The notes under the pieces were generated by a model. That model was given only the letters and a program-made list of their open reading frames with translations, searched no databases and had not been told where the DNA came from. From Chloroflexota bacterium (GTDB lineage: Bacteria; Chloroflexota; Limnocylindria; Limnocylindrales; CSP1-4), in the NCBI GenBank assembly GCA_046045415.1, contig JBJOLT010000015.1, positions 5,988 to 69,987 on the forward strand: 64,000 nt of DNA. The letters run 5' to 3'. Made by a program: the position numbers and the translations under genes. Shown here one piece after another: positions 5,726-34,796 of this stretch (position 1 is the first letter of the stretch; the number at the start of each line of letters is the position of its first letter).

Positions 5726-5771
5726 CCGATGCTCCTCTCGCGTCGCGACCCGCCGGGACGGACCGCTCGCG

Positions 5772-6776: not shown

Positions 6777-6791
6777 CGTCCTCTTCCTCCG

Positions 6792-8291: not shown

Positions 8292-8443
8292 CCCTGCCTC
8301 GCGACCTCAGGCTCGTCACACTGCCGCCGGTCACCGTGAACCGGCCCTGAAACGCCGTTCGGAGGCCCGGCGAACCGGGCCTCCGAACGGTACCACTCGC
8401 GGTGTTCGCTTCGACCGCCCCGGAGGGACGGCCTCGCGGGCTC

Positions 8444-9412: not shown

Positions 9413-9517
9413 CTACGGATTCCTCCTCTGTCTCACCGATCGGCCGGTCCGTGCCCCGAGGGTCACGCGTCCCGTCGGTCGGTCATCGATTGCCGGACGC
9501 TACCGAGCCGGCATCGC

Positions 9518-9537
9518 ACGCGTCAAGCGATGACGCG
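9518..9537. promoter_or_regulatory. Candidate operator: 7-bp perfect inverted repeat CGCGTCA-agcga-TGACGCG in the 228-bp region upstream of the binding-protein gene
   Basis: The palindrome is seen directly in the intergenic region between the iolE stop and the binding-protein gene start. Confidence 0.3.
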
Positions 9538-9639
9538 CGAGATGGCGACACTTTACGGTCTCCGGGCGCGCTCGTCATCACCGATCCGCGACCGATCCGC
9601 GACCGCGCCGAGTCCGACGGGCGCCGGGGGACGGGGCCC

Positions 9640-19864: not shown

Positions 19865-21166
19865 CTACCGCATCGACCAGCCGGCGCCGAGCCTGAGGAC
19901 CTGACGCGGGCGGAGCTGCCGGCCGCGGGAGGTGTTCGTCGTGTCGACGACGAGCGAGGCCGTCGCATAGACCGCCGCCCAGTCGATCGCGGCATGGGGC
20001 GTGAGCGCCACGACGACATCCGATCCGGCGAGGAGCGGCTCGAGCGCCGTCGAGGTCCGCTCGGTCCCGGCGGCATCGGCGAAGCGAGGGACGTGCGGGT
20101 CGTGGTACTCGACCGCCGCGCCGCGCTCGGCGAGGAGCGCGATCACGTCCGCCGCCGGCGAGTTCCGGGGATCCCGGACGTCGGCCTTGAAGGCGACCCC
20201 GAGGACCCCCACCCGCGCTCCCTTGAGGGCGCGGCCGCGGTCGTTCAGCGCCTCGGCGACGAGGTCCGCGACGTGGCGCGGCATCGCGAGGTTGATGTCG
20301 CCGGCGAGCTCGACGAACCGGTCGACGAAGTCGAACTCGCGGGCCCGCCACGAGAGGTAGTAGGGATCGACCGGGATGCAGTGGCCGCCGACCCCCGGCC
20401 CGGGCCGGAACGGCATGAAGCCGAACGGCTTCGTCGCCGCCCCGTCGATCACCTCCCAGACGTCGAGCCCCATCCGCTCGCAGAGGAGGGCGAGCTGGTT
20501 GACGAGCGCGATGTTCACGTTCCGGAAGACGTTCTCGAGGAGCTTGGCGAGCTCGGCCGCGTCGGGCGAGCTCATCTCGACGACCGTCGCGTTGATCCGG
20601 CGGAGGAGCGTCGCCGCCCGGGCGGTCGCCGCGGGTCCGAGGCCGCCGACGAGCCGCGGGACGTCGCGCCGCGCGCTCGCCGGGTCGCCGGGGTTCACCC
20701 GCTCGGGTGCGAAGGCGAGGTCGAAGTCCCGGCCCGCGGCGAGTCCGCCCGCCTCGAGCGCGGCCCGGAACGGGCCGGTCGTCGTCCCGGGGAAGGTCGT
20801 CGACTGGAGGACGACGAGCTGGCCTCGCCGGAGCGAGCCGCGGACGAGCGCGGCGGCCGAGAGGACCGGCTCGAGATCGGGGTCCTTCGAGCGGGTGATC
20901 GGCGTGGGGACGCAGACGAAGAGCCCGTCGACCGCCCCGAGGTCGGCATCGTCGACGTGGGCGATCGACAGGCCGGTCCCGAGCGCCGCCCGGAGCCGCG
21001 CGTCGTCGACGTCGTCGATCGGCGAACGTCCCGCCGCCAGCTCGGCGACGCGCTCGCGGCTCGCATCGACGCCGACGACCTCGAGGCCCGCCTCGACGAA
21101 CGAGATCGCGAGCGGGAGCCCGACGTAGCCGAGCCCGACGATCGCGAGGCGCTGGTCGGCGGTCAT
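19865..21166 (-). CDS. Nucleotide-sugar (UDP-glucose/GDP-mannose family) 6-dehydrogenase
   Basis: 434 aa with an N-terminal Rossmann motif ([13 protein letters not shown]) and catalytic GGHCIPVDP. Confidence 0.85.
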
Positions 21167-22380
21167 CCGGACGAGGATACCGGACGTCCCGGGCCGCTCA
21201 TCAGGCGATCGACGACCGCGAGGTAGCGCGGCGCCTCCGCCTCCCACGAGCGCTCCCGGGCGAGCGCGAGCGTCCGTCCGACCCGCGCCGCCCGCGCCTC
21301 GGGCTCGTCGACGAGCGAGAGGATCGCGGCGGCCATCGCGGCGGCGTCCCCCGGCTCGTACGCGAGGACGCTCCCGGGCGGGCAGGTCGCCTCGACCATC
21401 GGGAGCCGGGTCGCGACGACCGGCTTCCCCATCGCCGCGTACTCGAAGATCTTCGTGGAGAGGCTGACGTCCGTGAAGGCGTCGCGGCGGGTCGGGGCGA
21501 GCCCGACGTCGGCGGCCGCGAGGACGGCGGGGACCTCCTCGAGCGGGATCCGGCCGTGGAGGCGGACGCGGTCGGCGATCCCGCGCGCGGCGGCGAGGGC
21601 GGCGAGCGCGGGGGCGGTGTCGCCCCGGCCGTAGATGTCGAACACGAGCGCGAGCTCCGGGCGCCGCTCGCGGATGAGCGCGACCGCCTCGACGGCCACG
21701 TCGACCTCGTAGGTCGGCGTGAGGGCGCCCGCGTAGACGAGCCGGAGCGTCCCGTCGGCCATGAACGCGCGGACCGGATGGGCCGCGGGGTCGAAGCGGG
21801 CGAGGGCGGCGAGGTTCCGGACGACGCTCACCTTCCGCACCGGGACGCCGGCGGCGAGGAGCCGCGCCTCCAGCGCCTCGTTCACGACGAGGACCTCCGA
21901 TGCGATCGCGACGGCGAGCCGCTCCTGGAGGACGAGGAGCGCGTGGGCGACGGGGTTCGCGGCCGCCGGGAAGCGGCTCCGGAAGAACTCGGGCATCGCC
22001 TCGTGGAAGTCGACGAGGAGCGGGACCCCGGCGAGCCGGAGCGGGAGCGCCGCGGCCGCGAGCAGGTCGGGGATCGTGTGGACCTGGACGAGCCCGTACC
22101 GGCGGCGGCGGTGCGCCCGGACGAGCGCGATCGTCGAGCGGACGAGGAAGTCGAGGTACTCGGCGGCGTACCGGCCGATCCCCGCCCCCTGGTGGCGCTG
22201 GACCCCGAGCCGGGCGACCCGGACCCCGGCGATCGTCGCCTCCGACGGCTCCCCCGGCCGCCGGAGCGCGATGACGTCGACCTCGCGGCCGGCGGCGACG
22301 AGCGCCTCGGCCTCGCGCCTGACGCGCGGATCCTCGTCGTAGTACGAGTGGACGATCATGCAGACCGGCGGGCGGCTCAC
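21163..22380 (-). CDS. Glycosyltransferase family 4
   Basis: 405 aa with a GT-B fold and a C-terminal GT4 donor-binding region ([18 protein letters not shown]). ATGA overlap with the dehydrogenase start. Confidence 0.8.
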
Positions 22381-22440
22381 CCGCTGATGCTATCGGCTCG
22401 GCCGCCGCCACCGTGCGGGGGCGTGCTACCGTGCGCGCCG

Positions 22441-23334
22441 ATGGAGAGAAGCCCCGCGCCGGCCGCCGAGGACGGCGTCGCGCTCCGCTCGACCGCCGAC
22501 CGGCCGGGACCGCTCGGGCTGATCCGCGAGGCGATCGCCGAGACCGCGTCCCGCCGCCGGCTGATCCGCTACCTCGTCCAGGCGGACCTGAAGAAGAAGG
22601 GGTCGGACACCCTCCTCGGGAACGTCTGGTGGATCCTCGACCCGCTCCTCCAGATGGCGGTCTACGTCGTCCTCGTCACCGTCATCTTCCAGCGGACGGT
22701 CCCGGACTACCCGCTCTTCATCTTCGCGGCGATCCTCCCGTGGAAGTGGTACACGAGCAGCGTGAGCGACGCGATCGGCTCGGTCGTCGGCCAGGAGCGG
22801 CTCATCAAGCAGATCCACTTCCCGAAGCTGATCCTCCCGACCGCGACGACGGTCGCGGGGATCGCGAACTTCGGCTTCGGGCTCGTCGCCCTCGCCGGGC
22901 TCCTCGTCGTCTTCTACGCGGACCGCGCGTCGCCGTACCTCCTCCTCCTCCCGGCGATCGCCGCGGTCCAGCTCGTCCTGACGCTCGCGGTCGCGTACGT
23001 CGTCTCCGCCGTGAACGTCTTCTTCCGCGACGTCGCGAACGTGAGCCGGCACGCGCTCCGGATCTGGTTCTACCTCTCGCCCGGGCTCTACGGCGCCGAC
23101 GCGATCGAGGCGCTCAGCGAGACGAACCCGCTCGTCGCCGACCTCATGCGGCTCAACCCGTTCTACACGCTCTTCGAGTCGTACCGGGCGGTGATCTACG
23201 GGACGGCGGCCGGCGGGCCGACGAGCCCGCCGTGGGCGGAGCTCGCCGCGTGGGGCCTCGGTTCGGTCGTCCTCCTCGCGCTCGCGACGTTCGTCTTCAA
23301 GCGGCTCGAGCCCGCGTTCGCGAAGGTCCTCTGA
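22441..23334 (+). CDS. ABC-2 type polysaccharide/teichoic-acid export permease (Wzm/TagG/KpsM-like)
   Basis: 297 aa, 6 TM, ABC-2 family. Confidence 0.8.
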   Translation: MERSPAPAAEDGVALRSTADRPGPLGLIREAIAETASRRRLIRYLVQADLKKKGSDTLLGNVWWILDPLLQMAVYVVLVTVIFQRTVPDYPLFIFAAILPWKWYTSSVSDAIGSVVGQERLIKQIHFPKLILPTATTVAGIANFGFGLVALAGLLVVFYADRASPYLLLLPAIAAVQLVLTLAVAYVVSAVNVFFRDVANVSRHALRIWFYLSPGLYGADAIEALSETNPLVADLMRLNPFYTLFESYRAVIYGTAAGGPTSPPWAELAAWGLGSVVLLALATFVFKRLEPAFAKVL

Positions 23335-24179
23335 TGGCCGACGAGCGACTCCATCCCGACGCGGTCGACGCGACCGCCCCGACGGTGATCGACGTCCATG
23401 GGCTCGGCGTCCGCTACAGCCTTCGGCTGACCCGTCGGAACACCGTCCGGCAGTCCTTCGCGAACCTGCTGAAGCCGCGCGAGGGCCCGACCGACTTCTG
23501 GGCGCTCCGCGACGTGACGTTCCGGCTGATGCGGGGCGAGTCGCTCGCGGTGATCGGGCCGAACGGCGCCGGGAAGTCGACGCTCCTCCAGGCGCTCGCC
23601 GGGATCATCACGCCGTCCGAGGGGGAGATCGCCGTCCGCGGCCAGATCTCGAGCCTCCTGACGCTCGGCGCCGGCTTCGACGCGGAGCTGAGCGGGCGCG
23701 ACAACATCATGCTCGCCGGCGCGTTCATGGGGATGGACCACCGGGAGATCGAGCGGCGGATCGACGGGATCATCGCGTTCGCGGACATCGGCCAGTTCAT
23801 CGACGCCCCGATCAAGACGTACTCGTCCGGGATGCGGGCGCGGCTCGGCTTCTCGATCGCGACCTCGGTCGACCCGGACATCCTCCTCCTCGACGAGGTC
23901 CTCGCGACCGGCGACCAGGTCTTCCGGGCGAAGTCGCAGGCGCGGGTCCTCGAGCTCGTCCGCGCGGCGAAGGGGATCGTCCTCGTGACCCACGACATGA
24001 ACTGGGTGACCGAGTTCTGCAACCGGGCGCTCCTCCTCGAGGGAGGCCGGATCGTCGCCGAGGGGGATCCGGCGGAGATCGTCGCGATCCACCGCGAGCA
24101 CTCCGAGCGGGTGAAGGCCGAGAAGCTCGCCGAGGCGGCGCGGCTCCTCGCGGGCGCGCGCGAGGGCGGCGGCCGCTAG
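23334..24179 (+). CDS. Polysaccharide/teichoic-acid export ABC ATP-binding protein (Wzt/TagH-like)
   Basis: Walker A GPNGAGKST, signature YSSGM, Walker B LLLDE. TGATG overlap with wzm. Confidence 0.85.
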   Translation: MADERLHPDAVDATAPTVIDVHGLGVRYSLRLTRRNTVRQSFANLLKPREGPTDFWALRDVTFRLMRGESLAVIGPNGAGKSTLLQALAGIITPSEGEIAVRGQISSLLTLGAGFDAELSGRDNIMLAGAFMGMDHREIERRIDGIIAFADIGQFIDAPIKTYSSGMRARLGFSIATSVDPDILLLDEVLATGDQVFRAKSQARVLELVRAAKGIVLVTHDMNWVTEFCNRALLLEGGRIVAEGDPAEIVAIHREHSERVKAEKLAEAARLLAGAREGGGR

Positions 24180-25519
24180 GCCGGGACCGGCGGGCGCCCG
24201 CCCGCGGGCGGCGGGGCGTCAAGAGGCGGCGGCGCGTCGCGGGGCGGCGGGGGGACGAGCCGTGCCGCGAGCGCGAGGTACGGGACGACGGCGGTCTCCC
24301 AGTTGTACCGCTCCCTGGCGGCGGCGAGCGCGCGGGCCCGCATCGCCTCGCGCTCGTCCGACGGGGCCTCGAGGACCGCTCGGAGCGCCCGCCGCAGGTC
24401 GGCGACGTCGCCCGGGTCCGCGACCGCGCCGATCCGCTCCGCCTCGAGGATCGAGCGCATCACCTCGAGGTCGCGGCCGAGGACGATCGGGGTCCCCGCG
24501 GCGAGCGACTCCCAGAACTTGTTCGGCGTCGAGAGCCGCTGGTTCAGCGAGCCCGCGGGGACGGCGATGATCGTCGCGTCGGCGGAGGCGGTCCAGGCCG
24601 GGACGTCGTCGGGGTGCACCGGCGGGAGCGTCACGTGGCGGCCGGCGTAGCGCGGGTCGCGGTCGCGCTCGCGGAGCCGCTCCGCCCACGGCCCGAAGCC
24701 CAGCATGACGAGCGCCGCGTCCTCGAGGCCGAGGACCGCCTCGGCGGCCTCCTCGAGCCCGCGCTCTCGGCCGAGCCGCCCGAGCCAGAGGACGACGCGC
24801 CGCTCCGGCGGGAGTCCGGCCGCCGCGCGGATGAGGTCGGGCCGGCGCGCGGGCGGGTCCCATCGCGGCTGGCAGTTCGCGAGGACGGTCGGGCGGGTCC
24901 GGACCGGCCAGGTCGCCGCGAGGTGGTCGGCGAGCGGCTCGTTCACGGTCACGACCGCGTCGGCGCGCCGGACCCAGCCCCGCTCCCGTGCCGCGTAGGC
25001 GGCGACGAGCGGGCGCGGCAGCCCGGCGACGTTGTTCGACTCGAGGATCACGTCGATCACGTCGTAGACGACCCGGCCCTCGCGGCCCGCGCGGCGCGCG
25101 GCCGCGGCGAGCGGGAGCGCCACCCCGACGGTGAGGATCCCGCACGCGTGGTAGAGATCGGCCGGCGGCAGCTCCGCGCGGAGCGCCGCCCACCAGCCGC
25201 GGGCGTTGAGCGGCCAGGCGAGCGCCTTGGCGGCGACGTCGACGAGCCGTCGGATCGCCGCGAGCGGCCCGCGCCGACGGCCGCGCGAGCCGGTGGCGGC
25301 GCCGACCGCGTACCGGGCGAACGGGCCGCGCGGACGGTAGCGGCGGATGACGACCCCGGAGCGGCCGTCACGCTCCGTCTCGGGGACCTCGGGGCGCGCG
25401 GCCTCCGCGAGCGCGGCGATCTCCACCTCGAACCCGGCCCCCTCGAGACTCCGGGCGACGCGGAGGCCGCGCGAATAGGGAGCGGCGGCGTTCGCGACGA
25501 GGACGACGGCGCGCCGCAC
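24176..25519 (-). CDS. Glycosyltransferase, GT-B (GT4-like), paralog 1 of a tandem triplet
   Basis: 448 aa. The C-terminal motif GSLNQRLSTPNKFWESLAAGTPIV is shared with the two upstream paralogs. A GTG start was chosen; it overlaps the wzt stop via CTAG. Confidence 0.7.
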   Translation of the reverse strand: MRRAVVLVANAAAPYSRGLRVARSLEGAGFEVEIAALAEAARPEVPETERDGRSGVVIRRYRPRGPFARYAVGAATGSRGRRRGPLAAIRRLVDVAAKALAWPLNARGWWAALRAELPPADLYHACGILTVGVALPLAAAARRAGREGRVVYDVIDVILESNNVAGLPRPLVAAYAARERGWVRRADAVVTVNEPLADHLAATWPVRTRPTVLANCQPRWDPPARRPDLIRAAAGLPPERRVVLWLGRLGRERGLEEAAEAVLGLEDAALVMLGFGPWAERLRERDRDPRYAGRHVTLPPVHPDDVPAWTASADATIIAVPAGSLNQRLSTPNKFWESLAAGTPIVLGRDLEVMRSILEAERIGAVADPGDVADLRRALRAVLEAPSDEREAMRARALAAARERYNWETAVVPYLALAARLVPPPPRDAPPPLDAPPPAGGRPPVPA

Positions 25520-25575
25520 GGGCGGGGGCGCCGGCGGCGGGGCGACCGGGCGGGGGGCGCGACCGGCGGGGCCGC

Positions 25576-26973
25576 TCACCACGGCCGTCCGGTCAGACGC
25601 CCGTACTCCTCGACGAGGAGTCCCATCTGGCGTTCCCACGAGTACGGGCCGTGCGCCGCGGCGAGGGCGCGGTCGCGGAGCGCGCGCCGCTCCGCCGGCG
25701 GCGCGTCGAGGATCGCCCGGATCGCCGCCGCGATCGCCGCGGGGTCGGTGGGGTCGACGAGCCGGCCGCAGCCGGTCTCCCGGACGATCGCCGCCATCCC
25801 GGGGAGGTCGCTCGCGACGACCGGGACCCCGGCCGCCATCGCCTCGAAGAGCTTGTTCGGCGTCGTCAGCCGGTGGTTGAGCGTCGAGGGCTGGATCGGC
25901 ATCGCGACGACGTCGGCCGCCGCGACCCAGCCGAGGAGCTCCGCCGGCGGGACCGCGGGGAGGAGCCGGACGCGCCCGGCCGCGGGGCCGGCCGGATCCG
26001 CCGCGATCCGCTCCAGCTCCCCGGCGAGCGGCCCGTACCCGAGGAGGACGAGCACCGCGTCCGGGACCCCGCCGATCGCGGCGACGAGCTGCTCGATCCC
26101 GCGATGCGGCGCCAGCCCGCCCTGGTAGAGGACGACGCGCGTCCCGGCGGCGAGTCCGAGCGCTTCGTGGAAGCGGCGCACGGGCGGGTCGCCGGGGTCG
26201 AAGCGGTACGAGCAGTTCATGACGATCGCCGGGAGCGGGACGCCGAAGCGGTCGGCCATCACCTCCGCGTACGGCCGGTTGACCGTCATCACCCGGTCCG
26301 CGCGGCGGGCCCAGCCGCGCTCGACCCGGCCGAGGAGCCGGCGCGCCGGACCGGGGAGACGCGCGAGGTTGTTCGCATCGACGTAGATGTCGCGCGCGTC
26401 GTAGACGACCCGGCCGCCGCGGGCGGCGGCGACCGCGAGCGCGACCGGGATCCCCATGTACGCCATCCCGTGGACGACGTCGGCCGGTGGGGCGACCGCC
26501 CGGGCGGCACGTGCCTGGGACCGGACGGTGAGCGCGATCGCGGCGATCCGGACGGCGGCCGCCACCGCGCGCCGGAGCCGGCCGCGGGACGCGACGCGGG
26601 ATGGCGCGGCGGCCGCCACGCCCGTCGCCGCGGCGTCCGTCGCCGCCGCGTCCGTCGTCGCCGCGCCCGTCGCCGCGGCGCGTCGCCCGGAGCGCCACCG
26701 GGCGACGGCTCGCCGGATCGGGGCCGGGAGCGGAAGGCCGTCCGCGGCGGAGACGGGAAGACGGACGATCCGGTAGCCGGCCGGATCGCGCGCCTCGGCG
26801 GGGAGGCCCGGCGCGAGCCGCGCGAGGACGGTCACCTCGTGGCCGCGGGCGGCGAGCGCGCTCGCGATCCGGAAGGTCCGTGAGTCGAACTCGCCGGTCG
26901 TCGGGAGGACGATCGTGCAGCGCTGCGGGACCGGCGCGTTCGAGCCGTCCGCCGCGGCGCGTCCCCCGCTCAC
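25576..26973 (-). CDS. Glycosyltransferase, GT-B (GT4-like), paralog 2 of a tandem triplet
   Basis: 466 aa (STLNHRLTTPNKLFEAMAAGVPVVASDLPGM). The GTG start overlaps the stop of paralog 3 (GTGA). Confidence 0.7.
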   Translation of the reverse strand: MSGGRAAADGSNAPVPQRCTIVLPTTGEFDSRTFRIASALAARGHEVTVLARLAPGLPAEARDPAGYRIVRLPVSAADGLPLPAPIRRAVARWRSGRRAAATGAATTDAAATDAAATGVAAAAPSRVASRGRLRRAVAAAVRIAAIALTVRSQARAARAVAPPADVVHGMAYMGIPVALAVAAARGGRVVYDARDIYVDANNLARLPGPARRLLGRVERGWARRADRVMTVNRPYAEVMADRFGVPLPAIVMNCSYRFDPGDPPVRRFHEALGLAAGTRVVLYQGGLAPHRGIEQLVAAIGGVPDAVLVLLGYGPLAGELERIAADPAGPAAGRVRLLPAVPPAELLGWVAAADVVAMPIQPSTLNHRLTTPNKLFEAMAAGVPVVASDLPGMAAIVRETGCGRLVDPTDPAAIAAAIRAILDAPPAERRALRDRALAAAHGPYSWERQMGLLVEEYGRLTGRPW

Positions 26974-28382
26974 GCCGTCGTCCGCACCGGCCCGGCCGCC
27001 GTGAGCTCCTCGTAGAGCCGGATCAGCCCGGCCGATTCGGTCTCCCAGTTCCAGCGACCGTGCGCGGCCGCGAGGCAGCGCGCCCGGAGCGTCGCCATCC
27101 CGTCCGGGGGCAGGGCGAGGAGCTCGGCGATCCCCCGGGCGAGCGCCGGGACCGACGCGGGGTCGCAGACGACCCCGAGCGGGCCCGCCGGGTCGCCGAG
27201 GACGATCCGCCGCATCTCGGGGAAGTCGCTCGCGACGACCGGGACGCCGGCCGCGAGGCACTCGAAGAGCTTGTTCGGCGTCGAGAGCGCGTGGTTGAGC
27301 GTCGAGGCCTGGATGGCGACGACACCGACGTCGGCGCCGGCGACCCACTCGACGAGCTCGTCGGGCGGGACGGCGTCGAGGACGTGGAGCCGACCGCCGT
27401 AGCGGGGGTCCGCCGCGGCGCGGTCGAGGTCCTCGCGCATCCGCCCGTAGCCGAGGTAGACCGCGTGGACCCGCTCGAGGCCCGGCTCGAGGATCGCGGC
27501 CGCGAGCTCCTCCAGCCCGCGGTGCGCCGAGAAGCCGCCGTGATAGAGCGCGATCGGCTCACCGGCGGGGACCCCGGCGGCGGTCCTCAGCAGGTCGCGC
27601 CGCTCGATCCGACGCTCGTGGCGGGCCGGCGTGTTGTGGAGGACGACGGTCCGCCGGGGCGCGTACCGGCGCCCGAGCTCCTCCGCGAGCGAGACGTTCA
27701 CGGTCACGAGCGCGTCGGCGGCCGCGACCCAGCGCGCCTCGAGGCGCCGGAACCGGTCGCGGATCCAGCGTGGCCGGTGGGCGTTCGTCCCCGACTCGAG
27801 GAAGATCTCGTGGCTGTCGTAGACGACGCGGCCGCCGTTCCGCGCCGCGGCCCGGAGCGCGGCCGGGAGACCCGTCAGGTCGTGCCCGTGGTAGACGTCG
27901 GCGAGCGGCGCCGCCCGGGCCGCGGCGTCCGCCCAGCCGAGGATCGCGAAGCGCCAGCGGACGAGCCAGTCGAGCAGCGTCCCGCCGGGCGGCTGCGGCC
28001 TCCCGCGCCCCCACGCGAGGTACCACGCGCCGCGGACGACGACCCACGGCATCGCGACGACGGCGAGGGCGGCCGCCGCGGCCGCGTTCAGGAGCCCGAT
28101 CGGGAAGCGGCCGAGCGCGTGCCGGAGCCGGAAGAGGAGCCACGAGCGGGCCCGCCACGGGTAGCGCGCCCAGATCCACCAGCGTCGCCACGCGTGCGGG
28201 ATCGGGACGCGGACGATCTCGACGCCGTCGCGCGTCTCGCGGTCACCCACCCGCGCCGCCGGGTCGGTCGGGCGGGCGAGGATCGTCACCTCGTGACCGG
28301 CCGCGGCGAGCGTCCCCGCCTCGCGGAGCACCCGCGCGTCGGTCCGGCAGTCGTTGAAGACGAACATGACGACGCGGCTCAT
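26970..28382 (-). CDS. Glycosyltransferase, GT-B (GT4-like), paralog 3 of a tandem triplet, with a Trp-rich amphipathic insert
   Basis: 471 aa starting MSRVVMFVFNDCRTD (STLNHALSTPNKLFECLAAGVPVVASDFPEM). The N-domain carries a W-rich insert, WRRWWIWARYPWRARSWLLFRL. Confidence 0.75.
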   Translation of the reverse strand: MSRVVMFVFNDCRTDARVLREAGTLAAAGHEVTILARPTDPAARVGDRETRDGVEIVRVPIPHAWRRWWIWARYPWRARSWLLFRLRHALGRFPIGLLNAAAAAALAVVAMPWVVVRGAWYLAWGRGRPQPPGGTLLDWLVRWRFAILGWADAAARAAPLADVYHGHDLTGLPAALRAAARNGGRVVYDSHEIFLESGTNAHRPRWIRDRFRRLEARWVAAADALVTVNVSLAEELGRRYAPRRTVVLHNTPARHERRIERRDLLRTAAGVPAGEPIALYHGGFSAHRGLEELAAAILEPGLERVHAVYLGYGRMREDLDRAAADPRYGGRLHVLDAVPPDELVEWVAGADVGVVAIQASTLNHALSTPNKLFECLAAGVPVVASDFPEMRRIVLGDPAGPLGVVCDPASVPALARGIAELLALPPDGMATLRARCLAAAHGRWNWETESAGLIRLYEELTAAGPVRTTA

Positions 28383-29497
28383 CGGACGCCACCGGCCTCG
28401 AGCGCCGTGACGATCGCCTCGGCCGCTCCGGCCGGCGCGAGGGCGACGGTCGCGGCCCGCTCCCGTGCCGCGGCCGGGGCCGACGACGGCGGTGCGAGGC
28501 GATCGAGCGCCGCGACGGCGAGCGCCGCATCGCGGCCGACGAGGACCGTCAGCCCGCGCGGATCGGCAGCCGCCTCGACCCACTCGGTCGTCCCGCGGAG
28601 CACGAGGCACGGCACCGCGAGCCAGGCGGCCTCGCGCTGGACGCCGCCGGAATCCGTGAGGACGGCGGCGGCGTGGAGCTGCAGGGCGAGCGAGGTCCGG
28701 TAGCCCTGCGGCTCGAGGATCGCGACGCTCGCGGGGAGCTCGATCCCGGCGGCGTCGAGCGCCGCCCGGGTCCCCGGGTGGAGCGCGAGGACGACGGGCC
28801 GCTCCGGGGTGGCGACGGCGGCGAGGAGCGCGCTCCAGCCGCGGAGCGCCGCCTCGTCGCGGTTCTCGGCGCGGTGGACCGTCGCGAAGCAGTAGCCGCC
28901 CGGCCGGAGCGGGATCCCGAGGCGCTCCCCGATCGCGGCGACGGGCGCCGGGTCGCGGATCGCCGCGAGCGTCCGTGCCGCGAGATCCTGCATCAGGTCG
29001 CCGACGAGCGTGACGCCCTCCCCGATCCGTTCGGCCTCGAGGTTCGCGACGGCCGCCGGGGTCGGGGCGAAGCGCCAGCGGGCGAGGTGATCGGCGACGA
29101 TCCGGTTCCGCTCCTCCGGCATCGCCCGGTCGAAGCTCCGGAGCCCCGCCTCGACGTGCGCGAGCGGGATCCCCGCCCGGGTCGCGGCGAGCGCCCCGGC
29201 GAGCGTCGAGTTCGTGTCGCCGTAGACGAGGACCGCGTCCGGGCGCCACTCGGCGAGGAGCGGGTCGAGCGCGTCGAGCATCCGGGCGACCTGCTCGCCG
29301 GCCGTCCCGCCGCCGATCCCGAGGGAGCGGTCGGGCTTCGGGAGGCCGAGCTCGGCGAAGAAGGCGCCGGCCATCGCCTCGTCGTAGTGCTGGCCGGTGT
29401 CGACGAAGCGCTCGTCATGGCGTGCGCGGAGGACCGGGCCGAGCGCCGCCGCCTTGATCAACTGGGGGCGCGTCCCGAGGACGCTGACGATCCGCAC
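28379..29497 (-). CDS. UDP-N-acetylglucosamine 2-epimerase (non-hydrolysing; WecB/WbpI-like)
   Basis: 372 aa aligning along its whole length to the WecB family. ATGA overlap with paralog 3. Confidence 0.85.
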   Translation of the reverse strand: MRIVSVLGTRPQLIKAAALGPVLRARHDERFVDTGQHYDEAMAGAFFAELGLPKPDRSLGIGGGTAGEQVARMLDALDPLLAEWRPDAVLVYGDTNSTLAGALAATRAGIPLAHVEAGLRSFDRAMPEERNRIVADHLARWRFAPTPAAVANLEAERIGEGVTLVGDLMQDLAARTLAAIRDPAPVAAIGERLGIPLRPGGYCFATVHRAENRDEAALRGWSALLAAVATPERPVVLALHPGTRAALDAAGIELPASVAILEPQGYRTSLALQLHAAAVLTDSGGVQREAAWLAVPCLVLRGTTEWVEAAADPRGLTVLVGRDAALAVAALDRLAPPSSAPAAARERAATVALAPAGAAEAIVTALEAGGVR

Positions 29498-29525
29498 GCG
29501 GAGAGCCTACCCGCCGCCGGGCGGG

Positions 29526-30956
29526 TCAGCGGCGCGCGGCGGGACGGCGGACGGCGGACGGGACCCCGACGCCGTGGTAGGCGACCCCGCGCGGGAGGGC
29601 GAGCGACCGAAGGCTGTTCCGGCCGTCGTAGAGGACCTGCAGGTGCGGGAAGCAGCCGAAGTCGAGCGTCGCGAAGCGGGGATCCGCGGTCTGGGTGACG
29701 ATCGCGAGCGCGTCGCTCCGCTCGCCCCAGCGGTACGGGGCGGCGCCGAGGGCGGCCGTCTCCGCCTCGTCGAGGAGCGGGTCGTAGGCGGCGACGCGGG
29801 CGCCGTGGAAGGTGAGGCGCTCGATCAGCGGGACCGCCCGGCTGTAGGCGAGCTCCTTCACCCCGTGGCGGTAGGTGAGCCCGAGGACGAGGATCGTCGT
29901 CCCGTCGAGCCCGCCGAGCGCCCGCTGGAGCGCCCTGACCGCGACGCCGACCTGCCCGTCGTTCGTCTTCCGCGACGTCGCGACGAGCTCCATCTCCGGG
30001 GCGCGACTGAGGAGGAAGTGCGGATAGACCGGGATGCAGTGGCCCCCGACGCCGATCCCGGGCTGGTGGATGTGCGAGTAGGGCTGGCTGTTCGCCGCGT
30101 CGATCACCTCCTGGATGTCGACGCCGACCCGGTCGGCATAGCGCGCGAACTCGTTCGCGAGCGCGATGTTCACGTCGCGGTAGGTGGTGTCGGCGAGCTT
30201 GCTGAACTCGGCCGCCTCGGCCGACGACATCGCGACGATCTCCGCGTCGAGGACGGACGCGTAGAAGCGGGCGGCGAGGTCGGTCGCCTCGGGCGTCAGC
30301 CCCCCGACGAGCTTCGGATAGGCGGCGAGGTTCCGGAGCGCCGCCCCGCTGTAGAGCCGCTCCGGCGAGAAGGCGACGTGGAGGTCGCGCTCGATCGACG
30401 TGCCGCTCGCCGCCTCGAGCTTCGGCGCGAAGCGGCCGCGCGTGTCCCCGACCGGGAGCGTGGTCTCGAAGATGACGAGCGAGCCCGGATGGACCCCGGG
30501 CGCGATCGACGCGACCGCGGCGTCCATGTAGCGGTAGTCCGGCTGGTGGGCGTCGTCGAGCATGACCGGGACGATGAGGACGACGACGTCGGACTCGCGC
30601 GCCGCGGCGGCGGCATCGGTCGTCGCGCGGAGCCGGCCGGCGGCGTGGGCGCCCGCGACGAGCTCGGCGAGCCCCGGCTCGTCGTCGACGTGCGACTCGC
30701 CCCGATTGATCGAGTCGACGACCTCGCGTCGGACGTCGACGGCGACGACCTCCCAGCCGTGCGAGGCGTACTGGGCGCAGAGCGGGAGCCCCATCTTGCC
30801 GGCGCCGATCACCGCGACCCGGCCGGCGGTCCCCTCCTCGCCGGTCCACGGGGAGACCCGGCGCGTCTCGCCGTGCGGGCACGGCGCCGCCGGGAGCTCG
30901 ATCGAGCCGCCGAGGAGGCTCGGCCCCGTCGCGCTCGGGCGGGCGACGATCCTCAT
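29526..30956 (-). CDS. UDP-N-acetyl-D-glucosamine/mannosamine 6-dehydrogenase (WbpA/WecC-like)
   Basis: Rossmann motif VAVIGAGKMGLP and catalytic GGHCIPV. The true start is probably downstream of the ORF's first ATG, for example a GTG near 30850. Confidence 0.8.
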   Translation of the reverse strand: MRIVARPSATGPSLLGGSIELPAAPCPHGETRRVSPWTGEEGTAGRVAVIGAGKMGLPLCAQYASHGWEVVAVDVRREVVDSINRGESHVDDEPGLAELVAGAHAAGRLRATTDAAAAARESDVVVLIVPVMLDDAHQPDYRYMDAAVASIAPGVHPGSLVIFETTLPVGDTRGRFAPKLEAASGTSIERDLHVAFSPERLYSGAALRNLAAYPKLVGGLTPEATDLAARFYASVLDAEIVAMSSAEAAEFSKLADTTYRDVNIALANEFARYADRVGVDIQEVIDAANSQPYSHIHQPGIGVGGHCIPVYPHFLLSRAPEMELVATSRKTNDGQVGVAVRALQRALGGLDGTTILVLGLTYRHGVKELAYSRAVPLIERLTFHGARVAAYDPLLDEAETAALGAAPYRWGERSDALAIVTQTADPRFATLDFGCFPHLQVLYDGRNSLRSLALPRGVAYHGVGVPSAVRRPAARR

Positions 30957-32005
30957 CGGGCCGGGAGCCGCGCGGCGAGGGCGGAGAGGTCGGACGGGCG
31001 CCCGGCGTCGGCGGATTCGAGGAGTGCGGTGGCGATCGCGACCGCCCAGAGGCCGTCCTCGACGTCGACTGCGGGGCGGCCGCCGCCCCGGACCGTCGCG
31101 AGGAAGGCGTCGATCTCCGCGACGAGCGGCTCCCGGTTCTCGACCGGGATCTCCGCGACGTCGCCGGCGAACGTCGTCGCGTAGCCCCCGAGCGTCTGCG
31201 GGTTCGCGACGTCGGCCTTCGTGAAGGTGAGGCGCTGCGTCAGGTAGTCGAGCTCGAACATCCCCTCCTCGCCGATGACGGTCAGCTGGCGTCGCTTCGC
31301 GGGCGTCAGCCAGTTGACGTCGATCATCCCGGTCGCGCCCGACGGGAAGTGGAGGAGGCCGAAGAGGAGGTCCTCGTGCGTCGCGTGGATCCGCTGCGCA
31401 TGCTCGGCGTAGGCGCGGGAGGGGCGCTCGCCGGCGATCCAGCAGAGCATGTCGGCATCGTGCGTGCCGAGGTCCACCGTCACCCCGACGTCGCGGATCC
31501 GCGCGGGGAACGGGCCGGCGCGCCGGCTCGCGATCGCGTAGACCGTCGAGAGGGCGCCCCCCCGGAGGAGCTCGCCGAGCCGGAGGACGGCGGGGTTGAA
31601 GCGCTCGACGTGGCCGACCTGGACCGGGACACCCGCGGCGCGGGAGGCCTCGACGATCCGGAGCCCCTCCTCCACCGACGCGGCGAGCGGCTTCTCGACG
31701 AGGAGCGCGACGCCCCGCTCGATCGCGGCGAGCGCGAGCGGGAGGTGGGCGGTCGTCGGCGCCGCGACGACGACCGCGTCGAGCTCCGCCTCGGCGATCA
31801 TCGCGAGCGGCTCGGAGAAGCCCTGTGCGCCCGATCGCGCCACCGCCTCCTCGACCGCGGCGGCCGCGGGGTCCGCGACCGCGACGAGCCGGCAGCCGGG
31901 CTGCGCGGCGAGGACGCGGAGATGGTTCCGTCCCATCGAGCCGAGTCCCGCGAGGCCGACGCGGACCTCGCGCTCGCCGACCGGCGTCCAGCGCGCGGGG
32001 CTCAT
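30953..32005 (-). CDS. Gfo/Idh/MocA-family NAD-dependent oxidoreductase (WbpB-like UDP-GlcNAcA 3-dehydrogenase)
   Basis: 350 aa (GLAGLGSMGRNH, EKP motif). ATGA overlap with the dehydrogenase. Confidence 0.8.
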   Translation of the reverse strand: MSPARWTPVGEREVRVGLAGLGSMGRNHLRVLAAQPGCRLVAVADPAAAAVEEAVARSGAQGFSEPLAMIAEAELDAVVVAAPTTAHLPLALAAIERGVALLVEKPLAASVEEGLRIVEASRAAGVPVQVGHVERFNPAVLRLGELLRGGALSTVYAIASRRAGPFPARIRDVGVTVDLGTHDADMLCWIAGERPSRAYAEHAQRIHATHEDLLFGLLHFPSGATGMIDVNWLTPAKRRQLTVIGEEGMFELDYLTQRLTFTKADVANPQTLGGYATTFAGDVAEIPVENREPLVAEIDAFLATVRGGGRPAVDVEDGLWAVAIATALLESADAGRPSDLSALAARLPAR

Positions 32006-32015
32006 CGGGCGGGGC

Positions 32016-33116
32016 TCATCGGGGGGCGGCGTCCCCGTGCCGCGCGACGGCGGCCCGGACGGCGCCGATCACCGTCGCCTGCTCGTCGGCGGTCAGGTTG
32101 GGGTGCATCGGGAGGGCGATCGTCCGCGCCGCCGCGGCGTCGGTCACCGGGAGGTCGGCGTGGAGGCCGCGCTCCATCACGTACTCCTGCCGGTGGACCG
32201 GGAGCGGGTAGTAGACGTCGGCGCCGACCCCGTTCTCCCGGAGATCGGCGAGGATCGCGTCGCGCGCGCCGCCGACCTCGACGGTGTACTGGTGATAGAC
32301 GTGCGTCCGTCCCTCGGGCGTGACCGGGAGCCGGACCGGGAGATCGGCGAACGCCTCGTCGTACCGACCGGCGATCGCCTGGCGGCGTGCGGTGTTCCGC
32401 TCGAGCTTGTCGAGCTGGACGAGCCCGATCGCCGCGTTCAGGTTCGTCATCCGGAAGTTGTAGCCGAGGATCTCGAACGCGTAGCGGGTCCGCATCCCCT
32501 GGTTGCGGTAGAGCCGGAGCCAGTCGGCGAGCCGGTCGTCGTTCGTCGTCACCATCCCGCCCTCGGCGGTCGTCATGTTCTTCGTCGCGTAGAAGCTGAA
32601 GGCGCCGTGGCCGAACGAGCCGGCGCGGCGGCCGCGGTAGGTCGCCCCGTGCGCCTGGCAGGCGTCCTCCACGACCGCGATCCCGTGGCGGTCGGCGATC
32701 GCGCAGATCATGTCCATGTCGGCGACGAGGCCGAAGAGATGGACCGGGACGATCGCGCGGGTCCGCGGCGTGATCGCCTTCTCGATCAGCTTCGCGTCGA
32801 TGACGTAGGTGTCCGGCTCGATGTCGACGAAGACCGGGGTGGCGCCGGTGAAGAGGATCGAGTTCGCCGTCGCCGCGAACGTGTGCGCGACGGTGATCGC
32901 CTCGTCGCCGGGGCCGAGCCCGAGGCCGGCGAAGATCGCCATCTCGGCGAGCGTCCCGTTGCCGAACGCGATCGCGTGGCGGACGCCGCACATCGCGGCG
33001 AACCGCTCCTCGAACTCCGCGACCTGCTTCCCCTGGGCGATCATCCCGCTCCGGAGGACCTCGGTCACCGCCTCGATCTCCTCGGGACCGATGTCCGGCT
33101 TCGCGATCGGGATCAT
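32016..33116 (-). CDS. DegT/DnrJ/EryC1/StrS-family PLP aminotransferase (WbpE-like)
   Basis: 367 aa (MIPIAKPDIG...) with a sugar-aminotransferase fold and the PLP-binding lysine region (FSFYATKNMTTAEGG). Confidence 0.85.
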   Translation of the reverse strand: MIPIAKPDIGPEEIEAVTEVLRSGMIAQGKQVAEFEERFAAMCGVRHAIAFGNGTLAEMAIFAGLGLGPGDEAITVAHTFAATANSILFTGATPVFVDIEPDTYVIDAKLIEKAITPRTRAIVPVHLFGLVADMDMICAIADRHGIAVVEDACQAHGATYRGRRAGSFGHGAFSFYATKNMTTAEGGMVTTNDDRLADWLRLYRNQGMRTRYAFEILGYNFRMTNLNAAIGLVQLDKLERNTARRQAIAGRYDEAFADLPVRLPVTPEGRTHVYHQYTVEVGGARDAILADLRENGVGADVYYPLPVHRQEYVMERGLHADLPVTDAAAARTIALPMHPNLTADEQATVIGAVRAAVARHGDAAPR

Positions 33117-33787
33117 GCGCTCGCTCCATCGGCTGGGGCGTCGGCCCGCTCGGCGAGCGCGTCGGCCCTGGGGTCGTACCGGTAGGCGCGCCCGCATCGG
33201 GCGCAGTGGAGACTCGGATCGTGAGCGTACAACTCGGGCTTCCCCGGCGCCGGGTTCCCGTGCTCGTCCTTCAGCCGGTCGCCGCACGCGCAGACCCAGC
33301 CGATCCGGCGGGCCGGGTTGCCGGCGACGAGCGCGTGGTCGGGGACGGTCCTCGTGACGACCGCCCCGGCCCCGACGGTCGCGAAGCGCCCGACGTCCAC
33401 CCCCGCGACGACGACGGCGCCCGCACCGATCGAGCAGCCGTAGCGGAGCGTGATCGGGCTGACGACCCAGTCGGCGGCGCGGGCGAGCTCGCCGGTCGCG
33501 GTGATCGCGCGGGGGAACCGGTCGTTCGTGAGGATCGCGTTCGGGCCGATGAAGACGCCGTCCTCGACCGTGACGCCGTGGTAGACGAGCGCGGCGTTCT
33601 GGATCTTCACCCGGTCGCCGATGACGACGTCCTCGTCGATGAACGCATCGCGGCCCACGATGCAGCCCGCGCCGATCGTCGCGCGGTTCCGCACCTGGGC
33701 GCGGTGCCAGACGCTCGATCCGGCGCCGATCGCGACGTCCGCCTCGATGTCGGCCGACGGGTGGACGCGCGCAGAGGGGTCGATCAC
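33113..33787 (-). CDS. Hexapeptide-repeat N-acetyltransferase (WbpD-like)
   Basis: Left-handed beta-helix repeats followed by a C-terminal CxxC...CxxC. A GTG start at 33787 is preferred because the longer ORF would overlap the upstream GT2 gene. Confidence 0.75.
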   Translation of the reverse strand: MIDPSARVHPSADIEADVAIGAGSSVWHRAQVRNRATIGAGCIVGRDAFIDEDVVIGDRVKIQNAALVYHGVTVEDGVFIGPNAILTNDRFPRAITATGELARAADWVVSPITLRYGCSIGAGAVVVAGVDVGRFATVGAGAVVTRTVPDHALVAGNPARRIGWVCACGDRLKDEHGNPAPGKPELYAHDPSLHCARCGRAYRYDPRADALAERADAPADGASA

Positions 33788-33965
33788 GGGTGGGAAGGGC
33801 TCCTTCGACGGCGCGCGACGGGGGCTCGGCGAGCGCGGCGCGAGCGCGACCGAGGCGTGGCGGAGTATACCGGAGCGGCCCTTCGGGACCCGGCGGGCGA
33901 CGGGCCGATCCCGTCGGTCCGACGCGCTCGGGCAGGTGGGCGCGGGCCGGTCGCCCTCCCCGGCC

Positions 33966-34796
33966 TCATCGCCGGCGGACCGCCGCCGCGACGGCCGCAC
34001 CCTGGCGGAGGAGCGCGCGGACGAGGCGCTCGACGAGCCGGCCCGCTCCGGTCGCACGGAGCTCGTCGCGGCGGAGGGCGAGGACGAGGACGAGCGCCTC
34101 CCAGATGATCCGGCGCGACATCTTCGAGCGGCCCACCCGACGGTCGCGGAAGGTGATCGGGACCTCCCGGATCCGTGCGCGGCCCCGCGCGGCCCGGTAG
34201 GTCATCTCGATCTGGAAGACGTAGCCGCCGGCATGGATCCCGCCGAGGTCGATCGCCGCGAGCGTCGCGGCGCGCCACGCCTTGAAGCCGCCGGTGAGGT
34301 CGCCCGGGCCGAGCCGGAGGACGAGCTTGGCGAAGAGGCTCCCGCCGCGGGAGACGATCCGACGACCGATCCCCCAGTCCTCGACCCGCCCGCCGCGGCA
34401 GTACCGAGAGCCGATGACGAGGTCGGCCTCGCCGCGCTCGAGCGGCCCGAGGAGCGCCGGCAGCGCGTCAGGATCGTGGGACCAGTCGGCATCCATCTGG
34501 ACGACGGTCCCGGCACCGCCGGCGAGGGCGACCCCGAAGCCGTCGACGTAGGCGCGCCCGAGTCCCTCCTTCCCGGCTCGATGGCGGACCCTGATCCGCG
34601 GGTCGGCGGCGGCGAGCTCGTCGGCGAGCCGGCCGGTCCCGTCCGGCGAGGCGTCGTCGACGACGAGGAGCGTCGCCTCGGGGAGCGCCTCGAGGATGGC
34701 GCGCGCGATCGGGGCGAGGTTCTCCGCCTCGTCGTACGTCGGGAGGACCACCCACGTCCCGGCGGGACGGGGCTCCGCGGTCGTTCGGCGCGCCAC
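33966..34796 (-). CDS. GT2 polyprenol-phosphate mannosyl/glycosyl transferase (Ppm1/DPM1-like)
   Basis: VVLPTYDEAENL and DADWSHDP (DxD) motifs, as in dolichol-phosphate mannosyltransferase. Confidence 0.8.
   Translation of the reverse strand: MARRTTAEPRPAGTWVVLPTYDEAENLAPIARAILEALPEATLLVVDDASPDGTGRLADELAAADPRIRVRHRAGKEGLGRAYVDGFGVALAGGAGTVVQMDADWSHDPDALPALLGPLERGEADLVIGSRYCRGGRVEDWGIGRRIVSRGGSLFAKLVLRLGPGDLTGGFKAWRAATLAAIDLGGIHAGGYVFQIEMTYRAARGRARIREVPITFRDRRVGRSKMSRRIIWEALVLVLALRRDELRATGAGRLVERLVRALLRQGAAVAAAVRRR

Follow-up and report, generated by a model that had tools for sequence, protein, structure and literature searches.

Here, we describe a locus of 13 genes (g1 to g13; Table 1) between positions 19865 and 34796 of a 64-kb stretch of DNA, hereafter the window, from a Limnocylindria bacterium of the phylum Chloroflexota. 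With moderate confidence, we interpret this locus as a strain-variable envelope-glycan island of a probably monoderm host, i.e. one with a single membrane, organized around a conserved cassette (g8 to g12) whose product is probably UDP-2,3-diacetamido-2,3-dideoxy-mannuronate (UDP-ManNAc3NAcA). We favor this interpretation because the five enzyme classes of the pathway are encoded contiguously, the epimerase g8 carries a specificity signature, the acetyltransferase g12 matches WlbB by a margin over any other solved structure, and the five genes are inherited as a block. Gene content, family membership, the epimerase signature, and synteny are direct observations.

A five-enzyme cassette predicted to make UDP-ManNAc3NAcA

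Pseudomonas and Bordetella are the organisms in which the five-step Wbp/Wlb pathway has been established; the last step, that of the epimerase, has been characterized in Thermus. An earlier reading of the same DNA (hereafter the first-pass annotation) had recognized a complete set of the five Wbp/Wlb-type enzyme classes in the locus. Our analysis agrees: the five classes lie contiguously at 28379–33787, and signature residues of the epimerase give good support for the last step.

Judged from its sequence, g8 is the strongest single piece of evidence for UDP-ManNAc3NAcA as the predicted product. Its best match in the Protein Data Bank (PDB) is the Thermus thermophilus UDP-GlcNAc3NAcA 2-epimerase (8SXV; 3.5e-82, 280 bits), with which it aligns over residues 2–310. 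The second-best match, the UDP-GlcNAc epimerase of Methanocaldococcus jannaschii (4NEQ), scores 215 bits, and Escherichia coli WecB scores 134 bits; the TIGR00236 model is matched with 229 bits, over its cut-off. According to the paper describing the 8SXV structure, the Thermus enzyme differs from UDP-GlcNAc epimerases by having Trp307 in place of the arginine that binds the 3-hydroxyl group, Ala18 in place of Leu/Met, and Tyr96 in place of His/Gln, substitutions that represent an adaptation to a substrate with a 3-N-acetyl group and a 6-carboxylate. In our HMMER alignment, Ala-16, Tyr-92, and Trp-306 of g8 occupy the positions of Ala18, Tyr96, and Trp307, respectively, and the catalytic aspartate and the Arg/Gln/Lys/Glu ligands are kept. 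The signature extends to the Limnocylindria orthologues, where the alanine is found in 53 of 53 sequences, the tyrosine in 50 of 53 (phenylalanine in the other three), and the tryptophan in 52 of 52.

The acetyltransferase g12, which is 54–79% identical across related loci, has 3MQG as its best PDB match (4.3e-37, 131 bits, versus 103 bits for the next). This entry was deposited as a “lipopolysaccharides biosynthesis acetyltransferase” and is presumably WlbB of Bordetella petrii. Its lead of 28 bits, a measure of sequence similarity, upholds the proposed assignment of g12 to the WbpD/WlbB type.

The aminotransferase g11 matches the Pfam DegT/DnrJ/EryC1 family with 427 bits. In the PDB search, it scored 284 bits against perosamine synthetase, 252–256 bits against ArnB, and 251 bits against WbpE. 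Because this ranking does not separate the three specificities, we assign g11 at the level of its class.

For the oxidoreductase g10, the best NCBIfam model is NF040723, an archaeal UDP-GlcNAc 3-dehydrogenase, at 262 bits and under the 450-bit cut-off. The best PDB match, 3Q2K, reaches only 89 bits, and 7BVJ reaches 74.5 bits; both entries carry generic depositors' names, and we take them to be Bordetella pertussis WlbA and GnnA, respectively. In a large homologue search, all matches were close relatives from Limnocylindria, named by automated annotation. The name these close homologues carry is UDP-GlcNAc 3-dehydrogenase (EC 1.1.1.374), the WbpB/WlbA activity being EC 1.1.1.335.

The 6-dehydrogenase g9 matches the generic model TIGR03026 with 340 bits, over its cut-off, and has 4R16 (UDP-ManNAcA dehydrogenase) and Cap5O as its best PDB matches. 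The second dehydrogenase of the locus, g1, is 35% identical to g9 and scores 376 bits against TIGR03026, with 4R16 and 3G79 as best PDB matches. Both proteins are nearest to UDP-ManNAc and UDP-GalNAc dehydrogenases, and the PDB ranking separates their specificity no better than that of g11. The order of steps is a proposal, because g9, g10, g1, and g11 can be placed by enzyme class and not by substrate; oxidation of C6 may precede amination of C3, as in Pseudomonas, with UDP-GlcNAcA as the substrate of g10, or follow it, with g10 acting on UDP-GlcNAc.

The nearest characterized relatives of several products of the locus are archaeal: the MMP0352-based model for g10, Pyrococcus horikoshii 4R16 for g9 and g1, the Pyrococcus furiosus dolichol-phosphate-mannose synthase (DPMS) and AglJ for the glycosyltransferase g13, and, as second-best match, M. 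jannaschii 4NEQ for g8. This affinity of g8, g9, g1, g10, and g13 could reflect the composition of the databases or could be real.

The cassette occupies a fixed site in Limnocylindria genomes

A scan of species-representative genomes with g9 yielded 60 related loci (L001–L060; 67–78% identity), against which all proteins of the window were searched by tblastn. All 60 come from Chloroflexota metagenome-assembled genomes, mostly labeled Limnocylindria or Limnocylindrales, so that the actinobacterial host implied by the first-pass annotation has to be abandoned. The gene block g12-g11-g10-g9-g8 is near-invariant. The epimerase gene follows g9 in 51 of the 55 loci with enough flanking sequence, and g10 to g12 lie upstream in 51 of 52, which answers in the affirmative whether the synteny is conserved in related genomes. 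The cassette is always found at one site, with mreB-mreC on one side and surA-like, mazG, and rph genes on the other.

The genes between these flanks vary. In 17 minimal loci, the cassette is followed by the glycosyltransferase gene g2 and then by surA; 20 other loci carry a Wzm/Wzt exporter pair together with differing sets of glycosyltransferases of family 4 (GT4). The permease g3 is 50–64% identical in those 20 loci, the GT4 g6 is 39–64% identical in relatives, g7 is 44–64% identical or missing, and a close homologue of g1 (61–76% identity) occurs in only three related loci. Judged from the sequences, the layout is that of an O-antigen-like or wall-polymer island, in which the precursor genes are conserved, the assembly genes vary, and the chromosomal position is fixed.

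Alone among the transferases, g2 accompanies the cassette, which makes it the leading candidate for a transferase of ManNAc3NAcA. The g2 gene adjoins the epimerase gene in all 17 minimal loci and is 53–64% identical across relatives; at a threshold of 1e-10, we found no relative of g2 in the PDB.

Two further features of the related loci were noted. In the minimal locus that we examined, L006, an rmlA-like nucleotidyltransferase gene and an rmlB-like 4,6-dehydratase gene lie between mreC and the acetyltransferase gene (3165–5215), and the other minimal loci have a gap of similar size at this position; genomes like L006 may thus combine a 6-deoxyhexose with the predicted diacetamido-uronate. 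The aminotransferase g11 falls into two allele classes, ~68–81% and ~50–57% identical to the copy in the window, in an otherwise uniform cassette (~70% identity). The homologue at 7879–8946 of L051 is an example from this split, and both classes have similar PDB profiles. This split suggests that, within the conserved block, the gene was replaced or has recombined.

The predicted exporter and the lipid-sugar synthase candidate

The proposed Wzm/Wzt exporter of the ABC-2 (ATP-binding cassette) type is borne out by the adjacent permease and ATPase genes, g3 and g4, for which the best curated families are galactan Wzm/Wzt and TagH. The ATPase scores 192 bits against the NCBIfam model of the mycobacterial galactan Wzt and 177–187 bits against TagH, all under the equivalog cut-offs. 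The permease is a multi-pass membrane protein with four strong hydrophobic segments; it scores 23.9 bits against Pfam ABC2_membrane, slightly under the gathering score, and 54.6 bits against NCBIfam galactan Wzm/RfbD, with a weak match to KpsM. With 281 residues, g4 is too short for a C-terminal glycan-binding domain, so that export would be expected to follow the TagGH and galactan systems and not the type that recognizes the chain terminus.

Open reading frames (ORFs) of 170 amino acids or more were scanned against Pfam throughout the 64-kb window. No initiating transferase of the WecA/TagO or hexose-1-phosphate type was among them. Genes such as wecA and tagO are usually encoded away from the polymer locus.

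The product of g13 matches Pfam Glycos_transf_2 with 90 bits. Its sole PDB match is the Pyrococcus dolichol-phosphate-mannose synthase 5MLZ (2e-29, residues 16–241), NCBIfam gives weak matches to AglJ and PpgS, and no hydrophobic or transmembrane segment was found in g13. The catalytic subunit of Ppm1 is likewise not known to have a transmembrane domain. The description of g13 as a Ppm1-like glycosyltransferase of family 2 (GT2) is therefore retained, given the 5MLZ match and the missing membrane domain. The gene is present in 28 of the 60 related loci, where it lies 2–3.5 kb away from the core cassette. These similarities suggest that g13 supplies a lipid-linked (polyprenyl-phosphate) hexose donor for decoration outside the membrane.

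The host probably has a single membrane

A heliorhodopsin gene is located at 949–1770 on the minus strand (PF18761, 267 bits). Because this family has been reported to be absent from diderms, the gene supports a monoderm host, and we conclude from the sequence that the host probably has a single membrane. The heliorhodopsin gene is flanked by genes for a Na+/H+ exchanger and a transaldolase. The scanned ORFs of the window did not include genes for lipid A synthesis, Lpt, BAM, or WaaL; a gene for a SurA-like peptidyl-prolyl isomerase (PPIase) adjoins the locus. In the literature, we found no description of the Limnocylindria envelope, a recent paper on Limnocylindria being without information on it.

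Organization of the locus and its surroundings

The window has a GC content of ~75%, so that plain ORF lists consist mostly of spurious frames. Genes were therefore called by the GC content of codon positions (GC3), and each gene was then checked against Pfam and NCBIfam. This procedure reproduced the gene list, the gene order, and the coordinates of the first-pass annotation, including both ends of the locus. The 13 genes comprise the nucleotide-sugar cassette, four GT4 genes, one GT2 gene, a two-gene ABC exporter, and a second dehydrogenase gene (Table 1). The additional GT4 (g2) and UDP-sugar dehydrogenase (g1) reported earlier were both recovered; we count five glycosyltransferases and not six.

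Table 1. Predicted features of the locus and its secreted neighbor, in descending order of position
Feature	Predicted product or nature	Coordinates	Strand	Basis
Neighbor	Secreted 595-aa protein: signal peptide, conserved N-domain, two FlgD_ig domains	34881..36668	-	Pfam, homologues
g13	GT2, DPM1/Ppm1-like catalytic domain	33966..34796	-	Pfam, PDB
Spacer	g13/core operon spacer, 178 nt, probable	33788..33965	-	Sequence, homologue starts
g12	Left-handed beta-helix N-acetyltransferase (WlbB/WbpD-like)	33113..33787	-	Pfam Hexapep, PDB
g11	DegT/DnrJ/EryC1 pyridoxal phosphate (PLP)-dependent sugar aminotransferase	32016..33116	-	Pfam, PDB
g10	Gfo/Idh/MocA NAD-dependent sugar 3-dehydrogenase	30953..32005	-	Pfam, NCBIfam, PDB
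g9	UDP-HexNAc 6-dehydrogenase (WbpA/WecC class)	29526..30956	-	TIGR03026, PDB
g8	Non-hydrolysing 2-epimerase (WbpI/WlbD type)	28379..29497	-	TIGR00236, PDB, signature residues
g7	GT4 glycosyltransferase, variable part of island	26970..28382	-	Pfam Glyco_trans_1_4 + Glyco_transf_4
g6	GT4 glycosyltransferase, variable	25576..26973	-	Pfam
g5	GT4 glycosyltransferase, variable	24176..25579	-	Pfam
g4	Polysaccharide-export ABC ATPase (Wzt/TagH/RfbE group), 281 aa	23334..24179	+	Pfam ABC_tran, NCBIfam
g3	ABC-2 (Wzm-like) permease	22441..23334	+	Pfam ABC2_membrane (sub-threshold), NCBIfam
g2	GT4 glycosyltransferase	21163..22380	-	Pfam
g1	Second UDP-HexNAc 6-dehydrogenase	19865..21166	-	TIGR03026, PDB

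Transcription of the minus-strand genes runs in the order g13, g12, g11, g10, g9, g8, g7, g6, g5. The exporter genes g3 and g4 are convergent with g5, and g2, which is followed by g1, diverges from g3 over just 60 bp. The claim that the eight genes g12 to g5 are all coupled by ATGA or GTGA overlaps holds for five of the seven junctions, which have 4-nt overlaps (g12/g11, g10/g9, g8/g7, g7/g6, and g6/g5); at the other two, there are gaps of 10 and 28 nt. The overlap sequence is ATGA at g12/g11, g10/g9, g8/g7, and also g2/g1, and GTGA at g7/g6 and g6/g5. The g6/g5 overlap is valid only if g5 starts at GTG 25579, a start supported by homologue alignments that reach residues 2–5 of the 467-aa form. 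The stop codons of g5 and the convergent g4 overlap by 4 nt (CTAG), and the stop of g3 and the start of g4 have one base in common (TGATG). Because four-base overlaps are frequent across the whole window and thus a genome-wide property, the coupling of g5 to g12 is unremarkable.

A perfect 14-nt tandem duplication (CCGATGAGCCCCGC twice, ~31995–32022, minus strand) spans the stop of g11 and the start of g10. The repeat has the appearance of an ATGA overlap junction that was duplicated, producing the 10-nt g11/g10 gap.

Upstream of the core operon, g13 is probably not coupled to g12, a spacer of 178 nt lying between them. The start of g12 at GTG 33787 has an AAGGAG motif 12 nt upstream. The reading frame stays open further upstream, to 34000 or 34057, and we rejected the resulting long forms (295 and 314 aa): the 71 extra residues are Arg/Pro-rich, similarity to most relatives starts only at residues 55–72 of the long form, and the single predicted homologue start falls on the VID... 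residues that are equivalent to GTG 33787. The spacer holds a lone TATACT hexamer at 33863–33868 (minus strand) in DNA of ~75% GC, which may be a −10 element; a scan of the locus for consensus promoters and terminators gave no match and no full promoter.

The gene next to g13 encodes a secreted protein of 595 residues. Nine related loci have a homologue at the equivalent position, with an N-domain 43–56% identical to that in the window, and four of the nine homologues carry three CWB2 repeats. More broadly, in 11 of the 28 loci that contain g13, a secreted protein with a triplet of CWB2 repeats (PF04122, 182–191 bits) is encoded immediately upstream of g13. CWB2 domains anchor surface proteins of Clostridioides to an anionic wall polymer. 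We searched the window for CWB2 proteins and found none. As a matter of gene neighborhood, this arrangement fits an envelope-anchoring role for the glycan. The C-terminal module of the secreted protein is swapped between genomes, with two FlgD_ig domains in the window and three CWB2 repeats in L015, L017 (2703–4361), L030, and L060; the homologue in L051 (2–2977) combines GH18, FlgD_ig, and three CWB2 repeats. The N-domain has an HGNG...HLCYASGNSEPG motif, a possible His/Cys dyad.

Elsewhere in the window, a gene for a 1063-aa protein of the UPF0182 family (858 bits) is found at 42526–45717 on the minus strand, downstream of genes for a CAAX-protease-like protein and a zinc-ribbon protein. The region 2988–10617 encodes a KduI/IolB-family protein, a thiamine-pyrophosphate enzyme, a xylose-isomerase-like TIM barrel, and an ABC importer of the sugar type (binding protein, ATPase, and permease). 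We guess that these genes may belong to inositol catabolism; they have no relation to the glycan locus.

Discussion

We propose a scheme in which all substrates, the sequence of reactions, the acceptor, and the way the glycan is finally attached are inferred. The dehydrogenase g9 would oxidize C6 of UDP-GlcNAc, g10 would oxidize C3 with NAD, and g11 would aminate C3 with PLP; either g9 or the g10/g11 pair may act first. N-Acetylation of the 3-amino group by g12 and epimerization of C2 by g8 would then yield UDP-ManNAc3NAcA. Transfer of ManNAc3NAcA would likely fall to the conserved GT4 g2, and the variable GT4s g5 to g7 would extend an acidic chain, with a second uronate provided by g1, at the inner face of the membrane on a polyprenyl carrier primed by a transferase encoded elsewhere. 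The finished chain would be exported by g3/g4 and become a wall polymer resembling teichuronic acid, with g13 probably providing polyprenyl-phosphate hexose for extracytoplasmic decoration.

We favor a wall polymer because the exporter resembles Wzt and TagH, 20 loci combine an exporter with variable GT4s, CWB2 proteins are encoded beside related islands, and the heliorhodopsin gene speaks for a monoderm host. In addition, ManNAc3NAcA builds wall polymers in Geobacillus, Streptomyces, and Cutibacterium.

Several observations weigh against the UDP-ManNAc3NAcA and wall-polymer interpretation. Among the pathway enzymes, only the generic epimerase and dehydrogenase models are passed at curated cut-offs. 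The 3-dehydrogenase g10 is far closer to the archaeal UDP-GlcNAc 3-dehydrogenase model than to WlbA and gave no match at all to the Pseudomonas/Thermus WbpB type, and for g11, WbpE is a slightly more distant match than perosamine synthetase and ArnB are. The 17 related genomes with minimal loci keep the cassette and g2 but have no exporter at the site, which indicates that the system need not include Wzm/Wzt export. Finally, the scanned ORFs of the window included no phosphoglycosyl transferase for initiation and no LCP ligase, polymerase, or ligase. Genes for initiation, polymerization, ligation, and LCP proteins would thus be encoded elsewhere, which leaves attachment to the wall as a prediction. 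Of the ABC transporter-dependent secondary wall polymer with diacetamido-uronate proposed in the first-pass annotation, the sugar is probable and its export plausible, with wall attachment standing as an inferred element.

The glycan might instead be carried by surface or S-layer proteins or by a membrane glycolipid and not be linked to peptidoglycan, comparable to the Methanococcus N-glycans with derivatives of GlcNAc3NAcA and ManNAc3NAcA. We regard this as unlikely. The sugar was reported in archaeal N-glycans in a 2014 survey, and NF040723, AglJ, and Pyrococcus DPMS, all archaeal, are among the best matches of the locus. A protein or lipid carrier would also agree with the gene for a secreted modular protein that adjoins the island here and in relatives, and with the minimal loci, which have one transferase and no exporter and would fit a single residue or a short glycan. 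However, no oligosaccharyltransferase or GT-C gene was present among the scanned ORFs of the window, Wzm/Wzt exporters typically transport completed polymers, and four GT4s together with two uronate dehydrogenases suggest a repeat polymer. Moreover, the documented homes of this sugar in single-membrane bacteria are wall polymers.

The assignment of the cassette to one product has its own competitor, in which g8 and g9 form a WecB/WecC pair making UDP-ManNAcA, and g10 to g12 make UDP-GlcNAc3NAc directly from UDP-GlcNAc in the manner of GnnA/GnnB or MMP0352. Both the best curated match of g10 and the automated names of its homologues are those of a UDP-GlcNAc 3-dehydrogenase, and MMP0352 has been used in vitro as a dehydrogenase that oxidizes UDP-GlcNAc. 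The best solved relatives of g9 (4R16 and Cap5O) are UDP-ManNAc dehydrogenases, and g8 passes the generic WecB model. Nevertheless, we consider two separate sugars rather improbable, given that g8 has tryptophan in place of the 3-OH-binding arginine of all UDP-GlcNAc epimerases, in addition to the carboxylate-linked alanine and tyrosine, that its score against the GlcNAc3NAcA epimerase is double its score against WecB, and that the five genes are inherited as a single block.

A lipopolysaccharide (LPS) O-antigen locus of a diderm is highly improbable. In its favor, Pseudomonas and Bordetella use this enzyme set for sugars of their O-antigens, O-antigen loci typically combine ABC-dependent export with a variable island flanked by conserved genes, and a SurA-like PPIase gene adjoins the locus. 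On the other side, the lineage is Chloroflexota, the window carries a heliorhodopsin gene, a family that diderms are reported to lack, and lipid A, Lpt, BAM, and WaaL genes were missing from the scanned ORFs of the 64 kb.

Returning to the cassette as a source of UDP-ManNAc3NAcA, its closest counterparts are the Wbp, Wlb, and five-ORF T. thermophilus HB27 pathways, which comprise the same five enzyme classes. The Ala/Tyr/Trp signature is common to g8 and the Thermus epimerase, and the acetyltransferase is closest to WlbB. Differences are found in g10, which is not of the WbpB type of Pseudomonas and Thermus, is weakly WlbA-like, and is nearer to the archaeal MMP0352 family, and in g11, for which WbpE is no closer a match than other sugar aminotransferases are. 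The five genes here form one tight operon in the order acetyltransferase, aminotransferase, oxidoreductase, dehydrogenase, epimerase, and the host, unlike Pseudomonas and Bordetella, is a member of the Chloroflexota and probably without LPS.

The first-pass annotation had regarded ManNAc3NAcA as a sugar not known from monoderms. This claim of novelty fails because the sugar is already documented in the wall glycans of monoderms. It is the acidic component of the secondary cell-wall polymer that binds S-layer proteins in Geobacillus stearothermophilus, the repeating uronate of the teichuronic acid of Streptomyces griseus, where the utr locus was predicted to encode a Pseudomonas/Wbp-like pathway (PMC13274773), and a component of the wall and matrix polysaccharide of Cutibacterium acnes. 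The 2014 survey found complete gene sets in several phyla, with a spread of the sugar that reaches from the archaea into both Gram-positives and Gram-negatives. That no such polymer had been characterized for the lineage is trivially true, the relatives being metagenome-assembled genomes only.

The utr system of S. griseus and Streptomyces antibioticus (Cell 2025, PMC13274773) resembles the present locus in its acidic ManNAc3NAcA/GlcNAc3NAcA wall polymer, single membrane, predicted Wbp-like pathway, and species-variable locus. It differs in that the carrier of the Streptomyces polymer is ribitol-phosphate teichoic acid, to which TarS/TarM-like enzymes graft it, whereas no teichoic acid genes were seen here, and in that the transferases of our locus are GT4s accompanied by a dedicated Wzm/Wzt exporter; this comparison with the Utr proteins is by description and not by sequence. 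The non-pyruvylated Geobacillus polymer, composed of GlcNAc, Glc, and ManNAc3NAcA, is likewise anionic and anchors S-layer proteins, which parallels the CWB2 genes beside related islands. The Geobacillus anchoring domain is, however, neither SLH nor CWB2, the window is without CWB2, and the link between polymer and anchor comes here from gene neighborhood only. TagGH and the mycobacterial galactan exporter Wzm/Wzt (RfbDE) share with g3/g4 the combination of an ABC-2 permease with a short ATPase that leaves no room for a C-terminal glycan-binding domain, but the scores are far under the equivalog cut-offs (192 versus 400 bits and 55 versus 380 bits), and the substrate is different. In Methanococcus maripaludis and Methanococcus voltae (MMP0350–0353 and MMP0357), the likeness lies in diacetamido-uronate chemistry in a single-membrane cell and in the MMP0352-based model, which g10 matches best (262 bits, versus a cut-off of 450 bits). 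Their sugars are found on dolichol-linked N-glycans moved by AglB, whereas no oligosaccharyltransferase was among the scanned ORFs here.

The pathway and the occurrence of the sugar are thus already known, and the prediction is new for the class Limnocylindria only. It leaves our knowledge of the pathway and of the distribution of the sugar unchanged; what it contributes is annotation and a comparative view, not a new mechanism. Practical uses include annotation, the prediction of phage and lectin receptors, and the choice of enzymes for study, notably the 3-dehydrogenase, which stands between the WlbA and MMP0352 types.

Limnocylindria are abundant Chloroflexota of soil and freshwater, and the locus predicts one component of their envelope, an acidic diacetamido-uronate glycan. 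The precursor cassette is a conserved feature of the class, held at a fixed position inside an O-antigen-like variable region. We tentatively suggest, as one possibility, that the class-wide cassette beside mreBC specifies the principal anionic polymer of the wall, or its conserved linkage unit, and in this way replaces teichoic acid. Such a polymer might serve as the ligand for CWB2 and other modular surface proteins, and the variable transferases and exporter might give rise to a serotype-like diversity among these bacteria.

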